Under the pieces are notes generated by a model. It was given only the letters and a program-made list of their open reading frames with translations, searched no databases and was not told where the DNA came from. A stretch of 11,064 nucleotides of DNA, from IMG/VR virus record IMGVR_UViG_648276661_000004, positions 1 through 11,064 of that record; one strand, written 5' to 3'. The stretch comes from a virus (taxonomy: Duplodnaviria > Heunggongvirae > Uroviricota > Caudoviricetes). A program made the translations under genes and the position numbers. This document shows, one piece after another, positions 3,299 through 11,064 of this stretch. The stretch's first letter is position 1. The number at the start of each line of letters is the position of its first letter.

Positions 3299-3799
3299 TC
3301 ATTCCAGACGCAGCGAATATGATTGTGTTTTTAAGCGTACTGGCGGCAGTTCCTGTTTTTCATGCAGGCTTTCTGCCAGTTCGTCCGGCGTGACCGGGCG
3401 GACAATAAAACGGTTGATGGTCTGAAGCGTTTTAAACACCAGACCACATCCCGGATCCGTGCACACATAAAAACGCTCGGTGACTTCCTGAGACAGACGC
3501 CGCGATGTTCTTGACAGTGCAAGGCCTTTACATCTCCGACAACAATATCCGGTAACAAGCATTCTTTTCGGGCGTTTCATACTGCCGGAGGCTGACGTCA
3601 GTGAATCGCGGTATCTCTGTTTGCCTGAAATGTATTCCATTCCTGAATCTTTACAGTCAGAGAAAAAGCTTTCACTCGCTTCAAATGTCGCAGAGCAATA
3701 AATATTCCGGCACTGTGCAATCATTATCTTGGTGCCATCGTCCATGAAATGTGCGCGACGGGTGTGAGCAACATGTCCACACGACGGGCAGTAAATCAT
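3299..3799 (-). CDS. delta: Delta late-gene transcriptional activator (Ogr/Delta zinc-finger family, tandem-domain form, 166 aa)
   Basis: Two Ogr-like Cys motifs: CPSCGH...CRNIYC at the N-terminus and CCRRCKG...CTDPGCG in the second half. The 166-aa length equals P4 Delta. Its ATG overlaps the sid stop in an ATGA arrangement (3796-3799). Confidence 0.9.
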   Translation of the reverse strand: MIYCPSCGHVAHTRRAHFMDDGTKIMIAQCRNIYCSATFEASESFFSDCKDSGMEYISGKQRYRDSLTSASGSMKRPKRMLVTGYCCRRCKGLALSRTSRRLSQEVTERFYVCTDPGCGLVFKTLQTINRFIVRPVTPDELAESLHEKQELPPVRLKTQSYSLRLE

Positions 3800-5082: not shown

Positions 5083-5349
5083 ATGCAAGCTGTTTTTTCT
5101 TCCCCGTCTCCTGCCCCTGTGACGCCACTGATGCCGCTGCCGGACATCACGCAGGAGCGTTTTTTACGTCTGCCGGAAGTGATGCACCTGTGCGGCCTGT
5201 CACGCTCGACCATCTACGAACTCATCCGTAAGGGGGAATTTCCGCCGCAGGTGAGTCTTGGCGGTAAAAATGTGGCCTGGCTGCACTCTGAAGTCACTGC
5301 ATGGATGGCCGGGCGCATCGCCGGACGCAAACGGGGGTACGACGCATGA
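5083..5349 (+). CDS. vis: Vis / AlpA-family DNA-binding regulator-excisionase (88 aa)
   Basis: Helix-turn-helix core [19 protein letters not shown] characteristic of the AlpA/Vis family. ATG at 5083 has GAGG 7 nt upstream. The 88-aa length and the position between the late promoter region and the immunity region match P4 vis. Confidence 0.8.
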
Positions 5350-5384
5350 TGATGCCTGTTCTGCAAAAACTCCCTTTTTCTGGC

Positions 5385-5414
5385 TTGCCTTTTTCCGGCA
5401 TTTGCGGATATAGT
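5385..5414 (+). promoter_or_regulatory. Sigma70-like promoter (TTGCCT - 18 bp - TATAGT), candidate PLE-type promoter for the immunity/early operon
   Basis: -35 TTGCCT at 5385-5390 and -10 TATAGT at 5409-5414 with an 18-bp spacer. It sits 36 bp after the vis stop and about 30 bp upstream of seqA. Confidence 0.5.
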
Positions 5415-5443
5415 TTTTCCGCTGCCGCAAAATCGGCAGCCGG

Positions 5444-5474
5444 GCGTGAGAACCCGAGCAATCTAACGGCGACA
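5444..5474 (+). promoter_or_regulatory. seqA-like antisense target (blocks GTGAGAA ... TCTAACGG complementary to the seqB-like segment at 5641-5663)
   Basis: GCGTGAGAACCCGAGCAATCTAACGGCGACA shares the two blocks GTGAGAA and (T)CTAACGG with seqC (5687-5730). Both blocks are complementary to CCGTTAGA...ATTCTCAC at 5641-5663. Confidence 0.45.
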
Positions 5475-5477
5475 TAT

Positions 5478-5499
5478 GACGCGCCATGCGTCTTTTTTT
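5478..5499 (+). terminator. Hairpin GACGC-GCCAT-GCGTC followed by TTTTTTT: candidate immunity (premature-termination) terminator just after seqA
   Basis: 5-bp GC-rich stem, 5-nt loop and a T7 run on the plus strand inside the operon leader. This fits the termination-based immunity mechanism of P4/P1-type antisense systems. Confidence 0.45.
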
Positions 5500-5589
5500 G
5501 TGTCGCAATCAACGCCACAGAGCGCCAGATTATGGTGTGGCGTGTGGTTTGCCGTGCAGGTATGATCCTGTTTGCAATCGCATGTTATG

Positions 5590-5670
5590 CCACTGAGTCA
5601 ATGGTAGCTCAGGCGGGGCAGCCTCCGGGCTGGCCGGTATCCGTTAGAGCCGGTATTCTCACCCCCGTCT
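5590..5670 (+). ncRNA. Candidate CI-like (C4-family) antisense immunity RNA containing the seqB-like segment; ends are approximate
   Basis: 5641-5663 (CCGTTAGAGCCGGTATTCTCACC) is complementary in two blocks to both seqA and seqC. It lies between the two targets as in P4. The exact 5' and 3' ends cannot be set from sequence alone. Confidence 0.3.
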
Positions 5671-5686
5671 GGGCTATCGCCATCGA

Positions 5687-5730
5687 GCGTGAGAACTCCG
5701 GCGATAGCGTAACCTGCTATCTAACGGAGG
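5687..5730 (+). promoter_or_regulatory. seqC-like antisense target overlapping the ribosome-binding site of the kil/icd-like gene
   Basis: GCGTGAGAACTCCGGCGATAGCGTAACCTGCTATCTAACGGAGG: the GTGAGAA block lies in the loop of a hairpin (GCTATCGCC 5672-5680 pairing with GGCGATAGC 5700-5708), and the CTAACGG block is fused to the GGAGG SD (5726-5730) of the downstream gene. Confidence 0.45.
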
Positions 5731-5738
5731 CTGCCATC

Positions 5739-5936
5739 ATGGCTACAACCCTTACCCCCTCACACCCTGAATTTGTCTTTGTGTTTGCGGCTGTCCGTCG
5801 CGCAGACCGTCATCCCCGTATCTGCATGCTTCGCACCGTCGCCGGTGATGAACGCAGCGCCCGCCGTTCCCTTGTCCGTGACTATGTGCTCTCCCTTGCT
5901 GCCCGTCTGCCGGTGGTGGAGGTGTCCCGTGCGTAA
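5739..5936 (+). CDS. kil: Kil / Icd-like host cell-division inhibitor (65 aa), first translated gene after the immunity RNA
   Basis: ATG at 5739 with GGAGG 8 nt upstream. The 65-aa product starts [26 protein letters not shown]. Position immediately downstream of seqC is as for P4 kil and P1 icd. The upstream part of the 211-aa track ORF (5301-5738) is regulatory and RNA sequence, not coding. Confidence 0.7.
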
Positions 5937-6216
5937 TAAAAAAGCCCCTCAGACCGTCTCAGCGCGTCATGACGCCCGTGAACACCTCAGCATTGAGGCT
6001 TACCATAAGCTCAACCGCGCCAGCGCCGTATCCCAGTTTGTTGGGGGTGATTTGATTCACCGTGAACTCTCCGGCCTGCATCAGCTCTACATTCCGCATA
6101 TTTTCAGCTACCTGAATGAAGATATTGATTTTGTGCTGAATGAGCTGAAAGCCAAAGGCCTGTGCCGCGATTTTCTCGCCCAGCAGAAAGACCGGGGAGA
6201 CAGGACGCATGTTTGA
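5929..6216 (+). CDS. Hypothetical protein (95 aa), GTG start overlapping the kil stop; corresponds by position to the eta/epsilon region of P4
   Basis: The frame has no in-frame ATG at all, so the start is non-ATG; GTG at 5929 overlaps the kil stop codon (GTGCGTAATAA). The stop overlaps the next gene start by 8 nt. Composition matches the backbone. Confidence 0.55.
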
Positions 6217-6664
6217 TTTTCCCCAGCCCGGTGAGATTTACCGTTCTGCCGGTTTTCCCGATGTGGCCGTGGTCGGCATTCTGGAAGACGGTATTCCGTG
6301 GGAAATGCCGTACCGCTGCCCGGACATTGTCTGGAATCCGTACCGCCGTAAATTCAGTATCCTTGTGCGTATCCTCGCCGACGGGCGCACCACAGACATC
6401 CCGCTGGGGCGTTTTCTGCGGGAATTTACCTGTGACCGTCCTGACCTGTTTAAACGCAGCCCCGTAAACCGGCATGCGGTACTGAAAGAAATGGCCGGAG
6501 ACCCGGAATTACAGAAATGGCGGGAGAAATATCTGGATATTTACCCACAGGACCCTGTTCCGGTCAGCCGGGCGGCACCGGTGGCGCGGGAATGGAGGGA
6601 AATTCCCCGCACGGAGTCTGACCCGGAAATCACCCCGGATAACAGTTACCGCAATTATCTGTAA
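6209..6664 (+). CDS. Hypothetical protein, 151 aa (P4 orf151-like by length and position)
   Basis: ATG at 6209 with GGGAGA 8 nt upstream; overlaps the previous ORF stop, suggesting translational coupling. The 151-aa length and position two genes upstream of alpha match my recollection of P4 orf151. Confidence 0.8.
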   Translation: MFDFPQPGEIYRSAGFPDVAVVGILEDGIPWEMPYRCPDIVWNPYRRKFSILVRILADGRTTDIPLGRFLREFTCDRPDLFKRSPVNRHAVLKEMAGDPELQKWREKYLDIYPQDPVPVSRAAPVAREWREIPRTESDPEITPDNSYRNYL

Positions 6665-6737
6665 TTAAAAAACGACACCCGAAAAATTAAATGTGCGTAT
6701 TCGCGCAGGGATACGCACGTCTTCAGGAGACGCAGAT

Positions 6738-6803
6738 ATGCCTTATCAGTTAATGCAACCGGCACGGAATGCAGTCATCTGTCACAGGGAGGAAAACAAA
6801 TGA
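6738..6803 (+). CDS. Candidate 21-codon upstream ORF ([21 protein letters not shown]) translationally coupled to the 106-aa ORF
   Basis: ATG at 6738 with AGGAG 8 nt upstream. Its stop TGA (6801-6803) overlaps the ATG (6800-6802) of the next gene. Not on the ORF track because it is too short. Confidence 0.25.
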
Positions 6804-7120
6804 AAACACCCTTACCGCCCGTCTTACGCGCTGCCCTTTACCGTCGCGCTGTCGCCTGTGCCTGGCTGACCGTGTGCGAACGTCAGCACCGCTACCCGCA
6901 TCTCACCCTTGAATCACTGGAGGCGGCCATCGCCGCTGAGCTGGAAGGCTTTTATCTGCGCCAGCACGGTGAGGAAAAAGGGCGTCAGATAGCCTGTGCC
7001 CTGCTGGAAGATTTAATGGAATCCGGCCCCCTGAAGGCCGCGCCGTCGCTGTCCTTTCTCGGGCTGGTTGTGATGGATGAACTCTGTGCCCGTCACATAA
7101 AAGCGCCGGTACTGCACTGA
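6800..7120 (+). CDS. Hypothetical protein, 106 aa (P4 orf106-like by length and position)
   Basis: ATG at 6800 with GGGAGG 7 nt upstream. Lies immediately upstream of alpha; 106 aa. Confidence 0.8.
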
Positions 7121-7134
7121 AGGAGAACAACACC

Positions 7135-9468
7135 ATGAAAATGAACGTAACCGCCACCGTCAGCCATGCGCTCGGCCACTGGCCGCGTATTCTCCCGGCG
7201 CTGGGGATTCAGGTGCTGAAAAACCGTCATCAGCCCTGTCCGGTCTGTGGCGGGAGTGACCGCTTCCGTTTTGATGACAGGGAGGGGCGCGGCACCTGGT
7301 ACTGCAATCAGTGTGGTGCCGGTGACGGCCTGAAACTGGTTGAAAAGGTGTTTGGTGTCTCCCCGTCCGACGCGGCCACAAAGGTGGCTGCCGTGACCGG
7401 CAGCCTGCCCCCGGCTGACCCGGCAGTGACGGCTGCCGCCGTTGCTGAAACAGACGCTGCCCGGAAGAACGCTGCCGCACTGGCACAAACCCTGATGGCA
7501 AAAACCCGTCCCGGAACCGGTAACGCCTACCTGACCCGCAAGGGCTTTCCCGGCCGGGAATGCCGGATGCTGACCGGCACACACAGAGCCGGTGGCGTGA
7601 GCTGGCGCGCCGGTGACCTTGTGGTGCCACTGTATGACGACAGCGGCGAACTGGTTAACCTTCAGTTAATCAGTGCTGACGGCCGTAAGCGCACCCTGAA
7701 AGGCGGACAGGTCAGGGGCACCTGTCACATCCTTGAAGGACAGAATCAGGCCGGAAAACGTCTGTGGATAGCGGAGGGATACGCGACCGCACTTACCGTG
7801 CATCACCTGACCGGTGAAACGGTGATGGTGGCGCTTTCTTCCGTGAATCTCCTTTCTCTGGCCAGCCTTGCCCGGCAGAAGCATCCGGCCTGTCAGATTG
7901 TCCTTGCCGCAGACCGTGACCTCAGCGGTGACGGCCAGAAAAAAGCCGCCGCAGCCGCAGATGCGTGTGAAGGTGTTGTTGCCCTGCCGCCGGTCTTCGG
8001 TGACTGGAATGATGCCTTCACGCAGTACGGCGGGGAAGCCACCCGTAAGGCCATTTATGATGCCATCCGGCCACCGGCTGAAAGCCCGTTCGACACCATG
8101 AGCGAAGCAGAGTTTTCCGCCATGAGTACCAGCGAAAAGGCCATGCGTATCTATGAGCATTACGGCGAGGCGCTCGCGGTCGATGCCAACGGCCAGCTTC
8201 TGTCCCGCTATGAAAATGGTGTCTGGAAGGTGCTGCCGCCACAGGACTTTGCCCGGGATGTGGCCGGGCTGTTTCAGCGTCTGCGCGCGCCGTTCTCCTC
8301 CGGGAAGGTGGCCTCCGTGGTGGACACCCTGAAGCTGATTATTCCGCAGCAGGAAGCCCCCTCCCGCCGCCTGATTGGCTTTCGTAACGGCGTGCTCGAC
8401 ACGCAGAACGGCACGTTCCACCCGCACAGTCCGTCACACTGGATGCGTACCCTGTGCGATGTGGATTTCACCCCGCCGGTGGAAGGGGAAACGCTGGAAA
8501 CCCACGCTCCCGCGTTCTGGCGCTGGCTTGACCGTGCCGCCGGTGGTCGTGCGGAAAAACGCGACGTGATTCTGGCCGCACTGTTTATGGTGCTGGCAAA
8601 CCGCTACGACTGGCAGCTCTTTCTGGAGGTGACCGGTCCCGGCGGCAGCGGCAAAAGTATCATGGCCGAAATCGCCACCCTGCTGGCCGGGGAGGATAAC
8701 GCCACGTCGGCCACCATCGAGACGCTGGAATCCCCGCGTGAACGTGCCGCGTTAACTGGCTTCTCACTGATACGCCTGCCGGACCAGGAAAAATGGAGCG
8801 GCGACGGTGCCGGACTCAAGGCCATCACTGGCGGCGATGCGGTGTCCGTTGACCCGAAATACCGGGATGCGTACTCCACGCACATCCCGGCGGTGATTCT
8901 GGCCGTGAACAATAACCCGATGCGCTTCACCGACCGCAGCGGCGGTGTGTCACGCCGGCGGGTGATTATTCACTTCCCGGAACAGATAGCCCCGCAGGAG
9001 CGCGACCCGCAGCTTAAGGACAAAATCACCCGCGAGCTGGCGGTCATCGTGCGTCACCTGATGCAGAAATTCAGCGACCCGATGCTCGCCCGGTCACTGC
9101 TTCAGTCCCAGCAGAACTCAGACGAGGCACTGAACATCAAACGGGATGCCGACCCGACGTTTGATTTTATCGGCTATCTGGAAACCCTGCCGCAGACCAG
9201 CGGCATGTATATGGGGAACGCCAGTATCATCCCGCGTAATTACCGTAAATACCTCTATCACGCCTATCTGGCCTACATGGAGGCAAACGGCTACCGGAAT
9301 GTACTCAGTCTGAAAATGTTCGGGCTGGGGCTGCCGGTGATGCTGAAGGAATACGGACTGAATTACGAGAAGCGCCATACCAAACAGGGGATACAGACCA
9401 ACCTGACGCTGAAAGAGGAAAGCTACGGCGACTGGCTGCCAAAATGTGACGACCCTGCGACAACCTGA
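7135..9468 (+). CDS. alpha: Alpha replication protein: primase-helicase with C-terminal origin-binding domain (777 aa)
   Basis: N-terminal zinc motif CPVCGGSD...YCNQCG (primase type), a Toprim-like region, Walker A GPGGSGKS, and a 777-aa length equal to P4 alpha. AGGAG 9 nt upstream of the ATG. TGTTCACC iteron clusters on both sides are its expected binding sites. Confidence 0.95.
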   Translation: MKMNVTATVSHALGHWPRILPALGIQVLKNRHQPCPVCGGSDRFRFDDREGRGTWYCNQCGAGDGLKLVEKVFGVSPSDAATKVAAVTGSLPPADPAVTAAAVAETDAARKNAAALAQTLMAKTRPGTGNAYLTRKGFPGRECRMLTGTHRAGGVSWRAGDLVVPLYDDSGELVNLQLISADGRKRTLKGGQVRGTCHILEGQNQAGKRLWIAEGYATALTVHHLTGETVMVALSSVNLLSLASLARQKHPACQIVLAADRDLSGDGQKKAAAAADACEGVVALPPVFGDWNDAFTQYGGEATRKAIYDAIRPPAESPFDTMSEAEFSAMSTSEKAMRIYEHYGEALAVDANGQLLSRYENGVWKVLPPQDFARDVAGLFQRLRAPFSSGKVASVVDTLKLIIPQQEAPSRRLIGFRNGVLDTQNGTFHPHSPSHWMRTLCDVDFTPPVEGETLETHAPAFWRWLDRAAGGRAEKRDVILAALFMVLANRYDWQLFLEVTGPGGSGKSIMAEIATLLAGEDNATSATIETLESPRERAALTGFSLIRLPDQEKWSGDGAGLKAITGGDAVSVDPKYRDAYSTHIPAVILAVNNNPMRFTDRSGGVSRRRVIIHFPEQIAPQERDPQLKDKITRELAVIVRHLMQKFSDPMLARSLLQSQQNSDEALNIKRDADPTFDFIGYLETLPQTSGMYMGNASIIPRNYRKYLYHAYLAYMEANGYRNVLSLKMFGLGLPVMLKEYGLNYEKRHTKQGIQTNLTLKEESYGDWLPKCDDPATT

Positions 9469-9484
9469 CCCTCATGGCTCATCT

Positions 9485-9510
9485 GACCGGCATCTGCCGG
9501 TCTTTTTTTT
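9485..9510 (+). terminator. Rho-independent terminator of alpha (stem GACCGG / CCGGTC, 6-nt loop, T8 run)
   Basis: Perfect 6-bp stem GACCGG-CATCTG-CCGGTC followed by TTTTTTTT, 17 nt after the alpha stop codon. Confidence 0.7.
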
Positions 9511-9527: not shown

Positions 9528-9830
9528 AGGTGAACAATCCACTGCTCATCATTCACCGTGTATTCACCCGTTATCACACTGAAATTAAAAGAGAAAAACG
9601 AAAAGTGAACAGTGTGAACAATCAAATCAAAAAAAACTTTTTTCGCCCTGTGTGATTTCAGTGCGGAGGATTAATCCCCTGCACAAGTCACACCGGCAGA
9701 ATGCCGGAGGTGAAGAATCGAATGTTCACCCTTCACCCATTATTCACCACCTATCACTCTGAAATAAAAGGAGAAAAAAGAAAGGTGAACAGTGTGAACA
9801 GTTCTTTCGAAAAAAAATTTTTTTCCTGAG
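9528..9830. repeat. crr-like cis replication region: two ~120-bp direct repeats with 180-bp period, each carrying TGTTCACC/GGTGAACA-type iterons
   Basis: Copy A (about 9528-9646) and copy B (about 9708-9827) align along their length, for example CATTCACCGTGTATTCACCCGTTATCACACTGAAATTAAAAGAGAAAAACGAAAAGTGAACAGTGTGAACA against CCTTCACCCATTATTCACCACCTATCACTCTGAAATAAAAGGAGAAAAAAGAAAGGTGAACAGTGTGAACA. Each ends in an A-run/T-run. This matches the recalled P4 crr organisation of two 120-bp repeats separated by about 60 bp. Confidence 0.65.
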
Positions 9831-10026
9831 TTAACGTGCGTGAAGATACGTGTAAAAATTAATCGATAGATATTATATGTATAAGGATGTGTATAAATGA
9901 ATTATAATAGAAAAATATAAACGATTTGAATCAAATGGTTATATGGCAATTTTGACTCCTGTGATCTTCCGCCAAAATGCCTCTCCTGAACTCTCCCGAC
10001 GTCAACAACACTCCTTCGGAGGCGAC

Positions 10027-11064
10027 ATGTCAGACAAAGACTTAACCCAGCCCCCAGCAGGCGAGTTTATTATGTTTGCCAGCGGTGACGGAAGAGTGCG
10101 TGTTGAATGTCGCTTTGAGTCAGACACAATCTGGTTATCCCAGGCGGCAATGGCTGAACTGTACGATAAAGATGTTCGCACTATTAACGAACATTTAATC
10201 AATATATTTTCCGAAGGTGAACTTGTTCAAAACTCAACCATCCGGAAATTCCGGATAGTTCGCCAGGAAGGAAAACGTCAGGTTTCCAGAGAGATAGACC
10301 ATTACAACCTCGAAGCCATTCTCGCTGTCGGCTATCGCGTTCGCTCGCCTCGAGGCACGCAATTCCGCCAGTGGGCAACGCAGACGCTTCAGGAATACCT
10401 GATCAAAGGTTTTGTGATGGACGATGAGCGGCTGAAGAATCCGCCTGTCGGTTCATCGGTTGTGCCCGACTATTTTGATGAGATGCTTGAACGCATCCGC
10501 GATATTCGCGCCAGCGAGCGTCGGGTATATTTGCGGGTGCGGGAGATCTTTGCTTTAGCTGCCGACTATCAGCCATCGCTTAAAGAAACCACGCAATTTT
10601 TTCAAACCATCCAGAATAAACTGCATTTTGCCTGTACCGGGCATACCGCTGCGGAACTCATCCACAAACGAGCAGATGCCAGCCAGCCGCACATGGGCTT
10701 GACCAGTTATAAAGGTGAAGAGGTACGTAAGGGCGACGTGACGGTGGCAAAAAATTATCTCACCCAGGATGAGGTCAGCGAACTTAATCGCGTGGTTAAT
10801 ATGTGGCTGGACTTTGCCGAGGATCAGGCCCGTCGTCGTCAGCAAGTCTTTTTGCGCGACTGGCAGGATAAGCTGGATCAGTTCCTGCAATTTAACGACC
10901 GAGAGGTTCTACAGGGCGCTGGTAAAATCAGCAAGAAAATGGCCGATGAAAAAGCGCAGGCGGAGTATGTTCAGTTTGCCGAACAACAACGGCGCTTAAA
11001 AGAAGCCGAAGGCGAGAAGGATATCGCTGGTTTGCTACAGTGGAATAAAGAGTCGAAAAAGTAG
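10027..11064 (+). CDS. RhuM-family protein (virulence protein RhuM-like), about 345 aa
   Basis: Conserved RhuM-type N-terminal region (RVECRFESDTIWLSQAAMAELYDKDVRTINEHL ... AVGYRVRSPRGTQFRQWATQTLQEYLIKGFVMDDERLK). Start chosen at ATG 10027 with GGAGG 4 nt upstream; the track ORF begins earlier at 9943 without an SD. Stop TAG is at the window end. Confidence 0.8.
   Translation: MSDKDLTQPPAGEFIMFASGDGRVRVECRFESDTIWLSQAAMAELYDKDVRTINEHLINIFSEGELVQNSTIRKFRIVRQEGKRQVSREIDHYNLEAILAVGYRVRSPRGTQFRQWATQTLQEYLIKGFVMDDERLKNPPVGSSVVPDYFDEMLERIRDIRASERRVYLRVREIFALAADYQPSLKETTQFFQTIQNKLHFACTGHTAAELIHKRADASQPHMGLTSYKGEEVRKGDVTVAKNYLTQDEVSELNRVVNMWLDFAEDQARRRQQVFLRDWQDKLDQFLQFNDREVLQGAGKISKKMADEKAQAEYVQFAEQQRRLKEAEGEKDIAGLLQWNKESKK

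Follow-up and report, generated by a model that had tools for sequence, protein, structure and literature searches.

Layout of the locus

The window, by which we mean the whole 11,064-nucleotide stretch of DNA analysed here, is 98.6% identical to phage P4 (X51522 / NC_001609) over positions 6200-7200 and is, judged by its sequence and gene order, a P4-type satellite prophage. As in the P4 prophage, a partial int gene is followed by cargo genes and then by the minus-strand genes psu, delta and sid; after sid come orf88 (vis/alpA), the immunity RNAs, an Ash-family ORF (5301-5936), epsilon (5929-6216), orf151 (6209-6664), cnr (6800-7120) and alpha (7135-9468), the last three on the plus strand. 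The orf151 product belongs to phrog_10748, a family of unknown function, and is 98% identical to P4 ORF151. The cnr product (DUF5375) matches Pfam PF17345 with an E value of 3e-63 and corresponds to P4 ORF106, which we take to be Cnr, the copy-number regulator acting on alpha; Terzano and colleagues are said to have described this role in 1994. Alpha, the primase-helicase, is the last gene of the operon according to the ORF list and the P4 annotation.

The -10 hexamer of PLE, TATAGT, lies at 5409-5414 on the plus strand; the record X02534 marks it as 'consensus -10' at 2367-2372, and the sequence matches the window. From this position, transcription would start near 5421, where the Rfam match to isrK also begins. 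At the other end of the operon, t-alpha (9485-9510, plus strand) is a canonical intrinsic terminator consisting of a 7-bp GC stem and T8, called by a terminator scan (9485-9502) and annotated as a terminator in X51522. Its end lies approximately 4,090 nt from the PLE start.

The immunity region contains the P4 immunity RNA set, with Rfam matches to C4/CI RNA (5597-5684), isrK (5421-5498) and c4-a1b1 (5408-5460); in old GenBank records, the same stretch (5408-5684) continues to be annotated as a 137-aa 'cI gene product'. Downstream of t-alpha, the GTGAACA / TGTTCAC-type repeats at 9529-9620 are the P4 crr type-1 repeats (X51522). Just past alpha, t-alpha and crr lies a RhuM-family gene (9943-11064, plus strand, open at the window end; PF13310, E = 6e-118; PADLOC PDC-S05, E = 3e-173) that is not part of the canonical P4 gene set. 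The two minus-strand cargo genes at 737-2431, located between int and psu in a known P4 defence hotspot, have no Pfam domain; in PADLOC they correspond to a candidate defence pair, with matches to PDC-M18A (386 aa, E = 2e-34) for one and PDC-M18B (177 aa, membrane-like, E = 3e-16) for the other. Among P4-type sequences, four-fold-site polymorphism is 0.46 at the N-terminus of alpha (7135-7500) versus about 0.2 in epsilon, orf151 and cnr, a pattern suggestive of mosaic exchange in the part encoding the N-terminus of the primase.

The orf151-cnr junction

The junction between orf151 and cnr contains the features that a sequence-only reading had listed. A perfect inverted repeat at 6693-6718 is formed by GTGCGTAT (6693-6700), a 10-nt loop and ATACGCAC (6711-6718), and the tail of this hairpin reads GTCTTCAGGAG, with no T-run. 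It is followed by the Shine-Dalgarno (SD) sequence AGGAG (6725-6729, plus strand), which stands 8 nt before the ATG at 6738. This ATG opens a 21-codon ORF (6738-6803, plus strand), the TGA of which (6801-6803) overlaps the ATG of cnr (6800-6802). As that reading had also pointed out, cnr has an SD of its own, GGGAGG (6787-6792, plus strand); it lies in the 3' end of the small ORF, 7 nt before the cnr ATG, and is annotated as a ribosome-binding site in X05623. A GGAG-type SD is kept at this position in nearly all relatives.

No single one of these features is statistically remarkable on its own. The inverted repeat is the sole one within 6600-6900; the window as a whole contains perfect 8-bp inverted repeats with 3-12-nt loops at five distinct sites, compared to 1.9 +/- 1.7 in shuffles. 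The arrangement AGGAG-N5-10-ATG occurs four times, with 1.5 +/- 1.3 expected by chance, and the probability of finding 20 stop-free codons in frame with ATGA is about 1/3 x 0.39 = 0.13. What places the hairpin above chance is the 12-bp pairing of the sense-strand RNA, together with its conservation across relatives. The other perfect inverted repeats of at least 8 bp are located at 699-725, 1114-1132, 2591-2617 and 7386-7405. The first of them directly follows the int stop (690) and the third lies between the cargo genes and psu; these two may be terminators.

A predicted stem-loop of the epsilon-orf151 module

In the sense RNA, positions 6691-6702 can pair with 6709-6720 to form a stem-loop (6691-6720, plus strand) of 12 bp, two of them G.U, with a 6-nt loop; the perfect DNA core comprises 6693-6700 and 6711-6718. 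The predicted sense-strand fold has an energy of -17.5 kcal/mol (z = -4.07), and none of 200 shuffles was as stable. The antisense strand forms the 8-bp core only (z = -2.35). The hairpin is not new: X02534 (Lin, 1984) lists an 'imp. region of dyad symmetry' whose coordinates, 3656-3690, correspond to window 6689-6723, and the sequence-only reading had overlooked this record.

The hairpin follows orf151 and occurs only together with it, in all loci where orf151 is at least 64% identical. The A-rich spacer that separates the hairpin from the orf151 stop (6665-6690, plus strand) is conserved where orf151 itself is only 64-74% identical, and the entire block of spacer, hairpin and SD is more conserved than orf151. 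Conservation within sets collected with the hairpin as bait is circular and was not used. In a set baited with orf151 instead, the stems are exact in 78 of 80 loci; of the two exceptions, one has a C-to-T change and remains paired as G.U, the other a 1-nt deletion. Among P4-type sequences, 1 of 30 hairpin sites is polymorphic, compared to 37 of 180 four-fold sites (p = 0.02). Two baits from the orf151 3' end, CCATTAYCTGTAATTAA and AAATTATCTGTAATTAA, which were used to find diverged hairpins, yielded almost exclusively chance matches, with only L397 and L470 being real.

A comparison of 12 distinct variants for covariation found no pair with a double compensatory change, and the shuffle control was not exceeded. 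In four stem pairs, a one-sided change keeps the pairing (U.G to C-G or U-A, C-G to U.G, and G-C to G.U), and in the most diverged clade (L056, L061 and L470) four pairs break, the right arm being altered without compensation. Because of these uncompensated changes, the RNA structure is not proven and a role at the DNA level is possible. On thermodynamic and conservation grounds, and without covariation, the hairpin appears to be a conserved sense-strand RNA stem-loop belonging to the epsilon-orf151 module.

At the DNA level, the inverted repeat could be an operator that binds a dimeric protein and thereby controls an internal cnr-alpha promoter. A perfect 8-bp palindrome with strong sequence conservation and no covariation would suit such a site, the A-rich spacer contains weak TTAAAA-N16-TTAAAT hexamers, and X02534 marks a further 'consensus -10' at window 6660-6665, at the orf151 stop. 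A promoter scan of 6100-7300, however, found no sigma-70-like promoter on either strand, and matches to the half-site number 7 in the element when 7.8 are expected. The G.U-extended, asymmetric pairing is seen on the sense RNA only, and natural variants (T.G to C-G or T-A, and C-G to T.G) keep RNA pairing, not DNA symmetry. We know of no internal promoter for P4 cnr-alpha, and we consider an operator improbable.

The small ORF as a probable remnant of gene X

To place the small ORF in its family context, we collected 80 genomic loci across Enterobacterales via Cnr homologues, 78 of which were usable. About 70 of these 78 contain an ORF of 73-90 aa, here called gene X, with a TGA that overlaps the cnr ATG; its product ends, for example, in ...LTSVIYLMTAQLDGVVERCNQQWLTGEGNV before the stop. 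Gene X matches phrog_10110, a family of unknown function, with an E value of 8e-47, and searches of Pfam and NCBIfam returned no family for it. The common order in relatives is an Ash-like gene, gene X, cnr and alpha, linked by stop/start overlaps; epsilon, orf151 and the hairpin form an additional module found in only a subset of them. A published survey reported a 75-aa protein between epsilon and alpha in 61% of P4-like elements and its absence from P4 (de Sousa & Rocha 2021, PMC8628076).

The family alignment indicates that the 86-aa gene X product is the 75-aa form with a poorly conserved N-terminal extension. In an AlphaFold model (mean pLDDT 73), residues 1-12 are disordered, the extension has pLDDT values below 50, and two long helices span residues 19-41 and 51-80. 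These two helices make up the conserved core, DLECLEHLRNVGQ ... LTSVIYLMTAQLDGVVERCNQRW, and gene X is thus predicted to encode a helical-hairpin protein. A search of the model against PDB folds gave no match below E = 1.

Six loci (L039, L041, L047, L049, L052 and L060) connect this gene to the junction. In each of them, orf151 (65-74% identical) is followed by the A-rich spacer, the hairpin, AGGAG-N8-ATG(CCT), a gene X of 86-90 aa, and ATGA leading into cnr. Aligned to these loci, the P4/window sequence matches up to and including ATG-CCT, then shows a gap of approximately 195 nt, and matches once more in the last 5-6 codons. The 21-codon ORF is very probably an in-frame deletion remnant of gene X from which about 65 codons are missing. 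The loss of these ~195 nt in the P4 lineage would have removed the whole folded core and left the AGGAG-N8-ATG-CCT start region, about 14 unalignable codons and the final 5 codons, which would double as the SD and start region of cnr. Because the retained part corresponds to the disordered extension in both the model and the alignment, the P4 stub would not produce any folded gene X protein.

The ATGA at the end of the small ORF is, as far as can be read from these alignments, the ancestral gene X-cnr junction. The sequence-only reading had overlooked both this ancestry and the fact that the ORF is a relic of a widespread gene. One caveat to the remnant origin is that the ATGA end would be kept for the sake of cnr regardless. 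When the 42-nt body of the remnant was compared with the 5' regions of full-length gene X copies, none of 33 comparisons was significant (best p = 0.05), so its homology rests on position, flanks and intermediate forms. We also considered whether the body is a duplicated orf151 3' end, with which it shares three short repeat blocks; this origin was rejected, as the local alignment is at chance (p = 0.16; relatives similar).

Taken as a whole, the junction is likely explained by a decayed gene X and by a hairpin that is an RNA element of the epsilon-orf151 module.

Repeated decay of gene X

With the hairpin as bait, viral and metagenome collections provided 217 loci with sufficient flank. The 21-codon remnant at P4-type spacing is present in 173 of these, and a full-length gene X follows the hairpin in 34. 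In three loci, the gene X start is fused directly to cnr (L058, and L112 and L237 with MPVQLTPALRVALYRRA...). Two loci have a different, 24-codon remnant (MPYKQNNDAINHNNPCSLTGEVNI) in which more of the 3' end is kept and the junction is another one. Single loci show a 52-codon remnant that arose by in-frame deletion between CCAGCTCG repeats (L174), an IS1-like insertion (L182), a premature stop, and a 5-nt deletion by which the remnant is fused in frame to cnr (L084, identical to P0001, 125 aa). In L182 (metagenome contig JGI20225J20221_1000029), the IS1-like element sits about 5 codons into gene X, so that cnr is cut off from the hairpin and the start region. One locus of the genome set (L025) carries a 1-nt frameshift in gene X. 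The idea that the remnant::cnr fusion of P0001 is a common allele was dropped: it occurs just once among about 260 junctions. At codons 2-4 of cnr, four metagenome or viral contigs (L094, L365, L268 and L222) show graded A-to-C runs, ATGAAAACACCC becoming ATGAAACCCCCC, ATGAACCCCCCC or ATGCCCCCCCCC, which are probably sequencing or assembly artefacts.

The P4-type region is found in 979 of 5,426 complete E. coli genomes (~18%), always on the chromosome, and the gene X core in 85 complete E. coli genomes. Given this distribution of remnant versus intact forms (~979 vs 85 genomes), gene X is, by genome comparison, dispensable in E. coli, and the series of decayed forms indicates that it is repeatedly lost. 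The PGAP annotation places nothing in the 135-nt gap between orf151 and cnr, and the small ORF is annotated nowhere in the records that we checked.

Possible translation of the remnant and coupling to cnr

The sequence-only reading had proposed that the small ORF could be a translated micro-protein. The ORF has a good SD and ATG, and it is intact in 171 of 173 P4-type loci. Variants with a broken frame are tolerated. Across these 173 loci, we counted one synonymous versus about nine non-synonymous substitution types, in addition to one ATG-to-ATA and one TGA-to-TGC change. The peptide is very unlikely to be active itself because the substitutions are almost all non-synonymous; the N/S and E/K polymorphisms, which are common, go together with variation in the cnr SD. 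The 24-codon remnant of the closest sister lineage encodes an unrelated peptide, the source of the P4 peptide is a disordered, non-conserved extension of gene X, the three direct fusions to cnr lack the peptide altogether, and it has no annotation anywhere. The proposal is therefore disfavoured: judged by its substitution pattern and its origin by deletion, the remnant almost certainly lacks any function as a peptide.

Translation of the remnant is a separate matter. In this family, the SD-ATG pair at 6725/6738 that the sequence-only reading had pointed out appears to be a genuine start: it precedes full-length gene X in 34 loci and initiates cnr itself, intact and conserved, in the three fusions. 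Given this use of one initiation region by gene X or cnr in relatives, we lean towards the remnant being still translated. At most, it would ferry ribosomes over 62 nt to the cnr start.

Such ferrying could have been turned to use, and a coupling or leader role had been the other proposal of the sequence-only reading. In a coupling leader exapted from the remnant, the short ORF would be kept open by selection and pass ribosomes to the cnr ATGA for termination-reinitiation; it would also keep the 135-nt gap translated and thereby spare cnr-alpha from Rho-dependent polarity. This agrees with the remnant origin and differs in giving the ORF a current function. Stop/start overlaps of the ATGA kind with termination-reinitiation are known from translationally coupled gene pairs in many phage and bacterial operons, and the neighbouring genes of this operon are chained by ATGA overlaps (Ash-like gene to gene X to cnr). 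The 21-, 24- and 52-codon remnants are all open and in frame to ATGA, albeit in small numbers, both fusion types continue in frame into cnr, and an open frame would arise by chance with a probability of about 0.13 (P4 type) or about 0.11 (24-codon type). About 260 P4-type junctions contain no frameshift except the one that fuses the remnant in frame to cnr.

Polymorphism was compared in 72 sequences obtained without the hairpin bait, with the four-fold sites of epsilon, orf151 and cnr as reference. In the remnant body (6738-6785), 3 of 48 sites are polymorphic, versus 37 of 180 four-fold sites (p = 0.019), despite the non-synonymous nature of the changes. This low polymorphism is contrary to pure neutral decay; it may also reflect that the body has no homologous stretch to import from diverged relatives. 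The few changes in the body are all non-synonymous or start-loss, and the body cannot be aligned to the sister remnant.

Several observations argue against a coupling function. The conserved SD of cnr lies 7 nt from its ATG, and no predicted structure sequesters it. Natural disruptions are found in the form of a start loss and a stop loss among P4-type loci, the frameshift in L025, the premature stop and the IS insertion. The frame of the 52-codon remnant is mechanistic, not selected, because its deletion took place between in-frame CCAGCTCG repeats, and the P4-type and 24-codon classes may not represent separate events. We consider a coupling leader doubtful. A leader-peptide attenuator finds no counterpart here either: the only significant structure lies upstream of the ORF, and there is no terminator between 6738 and cnr.

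Possible roles of the stem-loop in the transcript

The sequence-only reading had favoured a processing or protein-binding site over a terminator. The second half of this claim stands: since the hairpin lacks a U-tract, it is not a canonical terminator, and a terminator scan that detects t-alpha made no call at the hairpin, where the tail reads GTCTTCAGG. The hairpin is conserved as well, which makes a processing- or binding-type role reasonable. Only C4, isrK and c4-a1b1 reach the Rfam gathering threshold in the window, all of them elsewhere, and the hairpin has no family match.

Early P4 transcripts from PLE are reportedly 4.1 and 1.3 kb long, a figure attributed to Deho and colleagues in 1988; a full-text literature search returned no source for these sizes. 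The 3' edge of the hairpin (6720) lies 1,300 nt from the inferred PLE start, which may point to an mRNA 3'-end or processing element; if these transcript sizes hold, the short transcript would end at the hairpin. Intercistronic stem-loops are known to define or protect RNA ends and to set differential expression, as do the REP sequences in malEFG and the hairpins of the puf and pap operons. The stem-loop may form or protect the 3' end of a short epsilon-orf151 transcript. Alternatively, cleavage in the A-rich spacer would place it at the 5' end of a cnr-alpha message. Either end would set the expression ratio between the two operon halves. We hold this assignment as an RNA-end or processing element tentatively.

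The same distance from PLE, and the position of a stable stem right after a stop codon, would also suit a leaky intrinsic terminator, with partial Rho-independent termination after orf151. We think this quite unlikely: neither the window nor any relative has a U-tract, the tail being GUC(U/C)UCAGGAG, the SD of the next gene begins 5 nt past the stem, and the scan without a call at this position is the one that finds t-alpha. A target for the CI (C4-type) antisense RNA was likewise rejected, as the predicted duplexes at 6640-6850 are less stable than is average for the operon (z +0.5 to +3.4). Rho-dependent termination in this operon has been assigned to t-imm (X51522 8365-8209), located approximately 1 kb upstream of the hairpin (PMC3177188).

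Implications and comparison with known systems

The remnant reading explains an ORF that is present, unannotated, in ~18% of complete E. coli genomes. It also refines the published statement that P4 lacks the 75-aa gene, since a decayed stub of that gene would be present with its start signals intact. For gene X, repeated loss and dispensability narrow the possible roles. The conserved stem-loop, in turn, is flagged at a plausible transcript boundary, directly before cnr and alpha, the replication control genes of a model satellite. The two elements might act together, with the remnant serving as a leader whose translation passes ribosomes on to cnr and protects the gap from Rho, and the stem-loop as a processing or 3'-end site. 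This combination is rather unlikely. If true, the P4 left operon would yield two messages, an epsilon-orf151 one that is abundant and a cnr-alpha one kept within tight limits, and the pair of elements would constitute a post-transcriptional control point for satellite replication. We regard the junction as a common case of gene decay that may have left something useful behind, and not as a new kind of system.

The small ORF resembles gene X/phrog_10110 in its position directly upstream of cnr, with a TGA that overlaps the cnr ATG, and in beginning at AGGAG-N8-ATG, 6 nt after the conserved hairpin, as in orf151-bearing elements. Unlike the members of that family, it has no conserved core (DLECLEHLRNVG ... 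ERCNQRW) and is a relic, not a member. It shares with coupled ATGA pairs the overlap of an upstream stop with the cnr start, a strong upstream SD and neighbours that are chained alike; it differs from them in that cnr has its own SD and the upstream partner is a decayed gene. The hairpin is comparable to the REP, puf and pap hairpins as a stable, conserved stem-loop that lacks a U-tract, lies between blocks of cistrons and is preceded by an A/U-rich single-stranded stretch. In contrast to those, it is not a REP sequence, has no Rfam match and is specific to the orf151 module. Finally, it is neither t-imm, which lies ~1 kb upstream, nor t-alpha, which follows alpha; with these two P4 signals, the hairpin shares the operon, in which they shape the left-operon transcripts.
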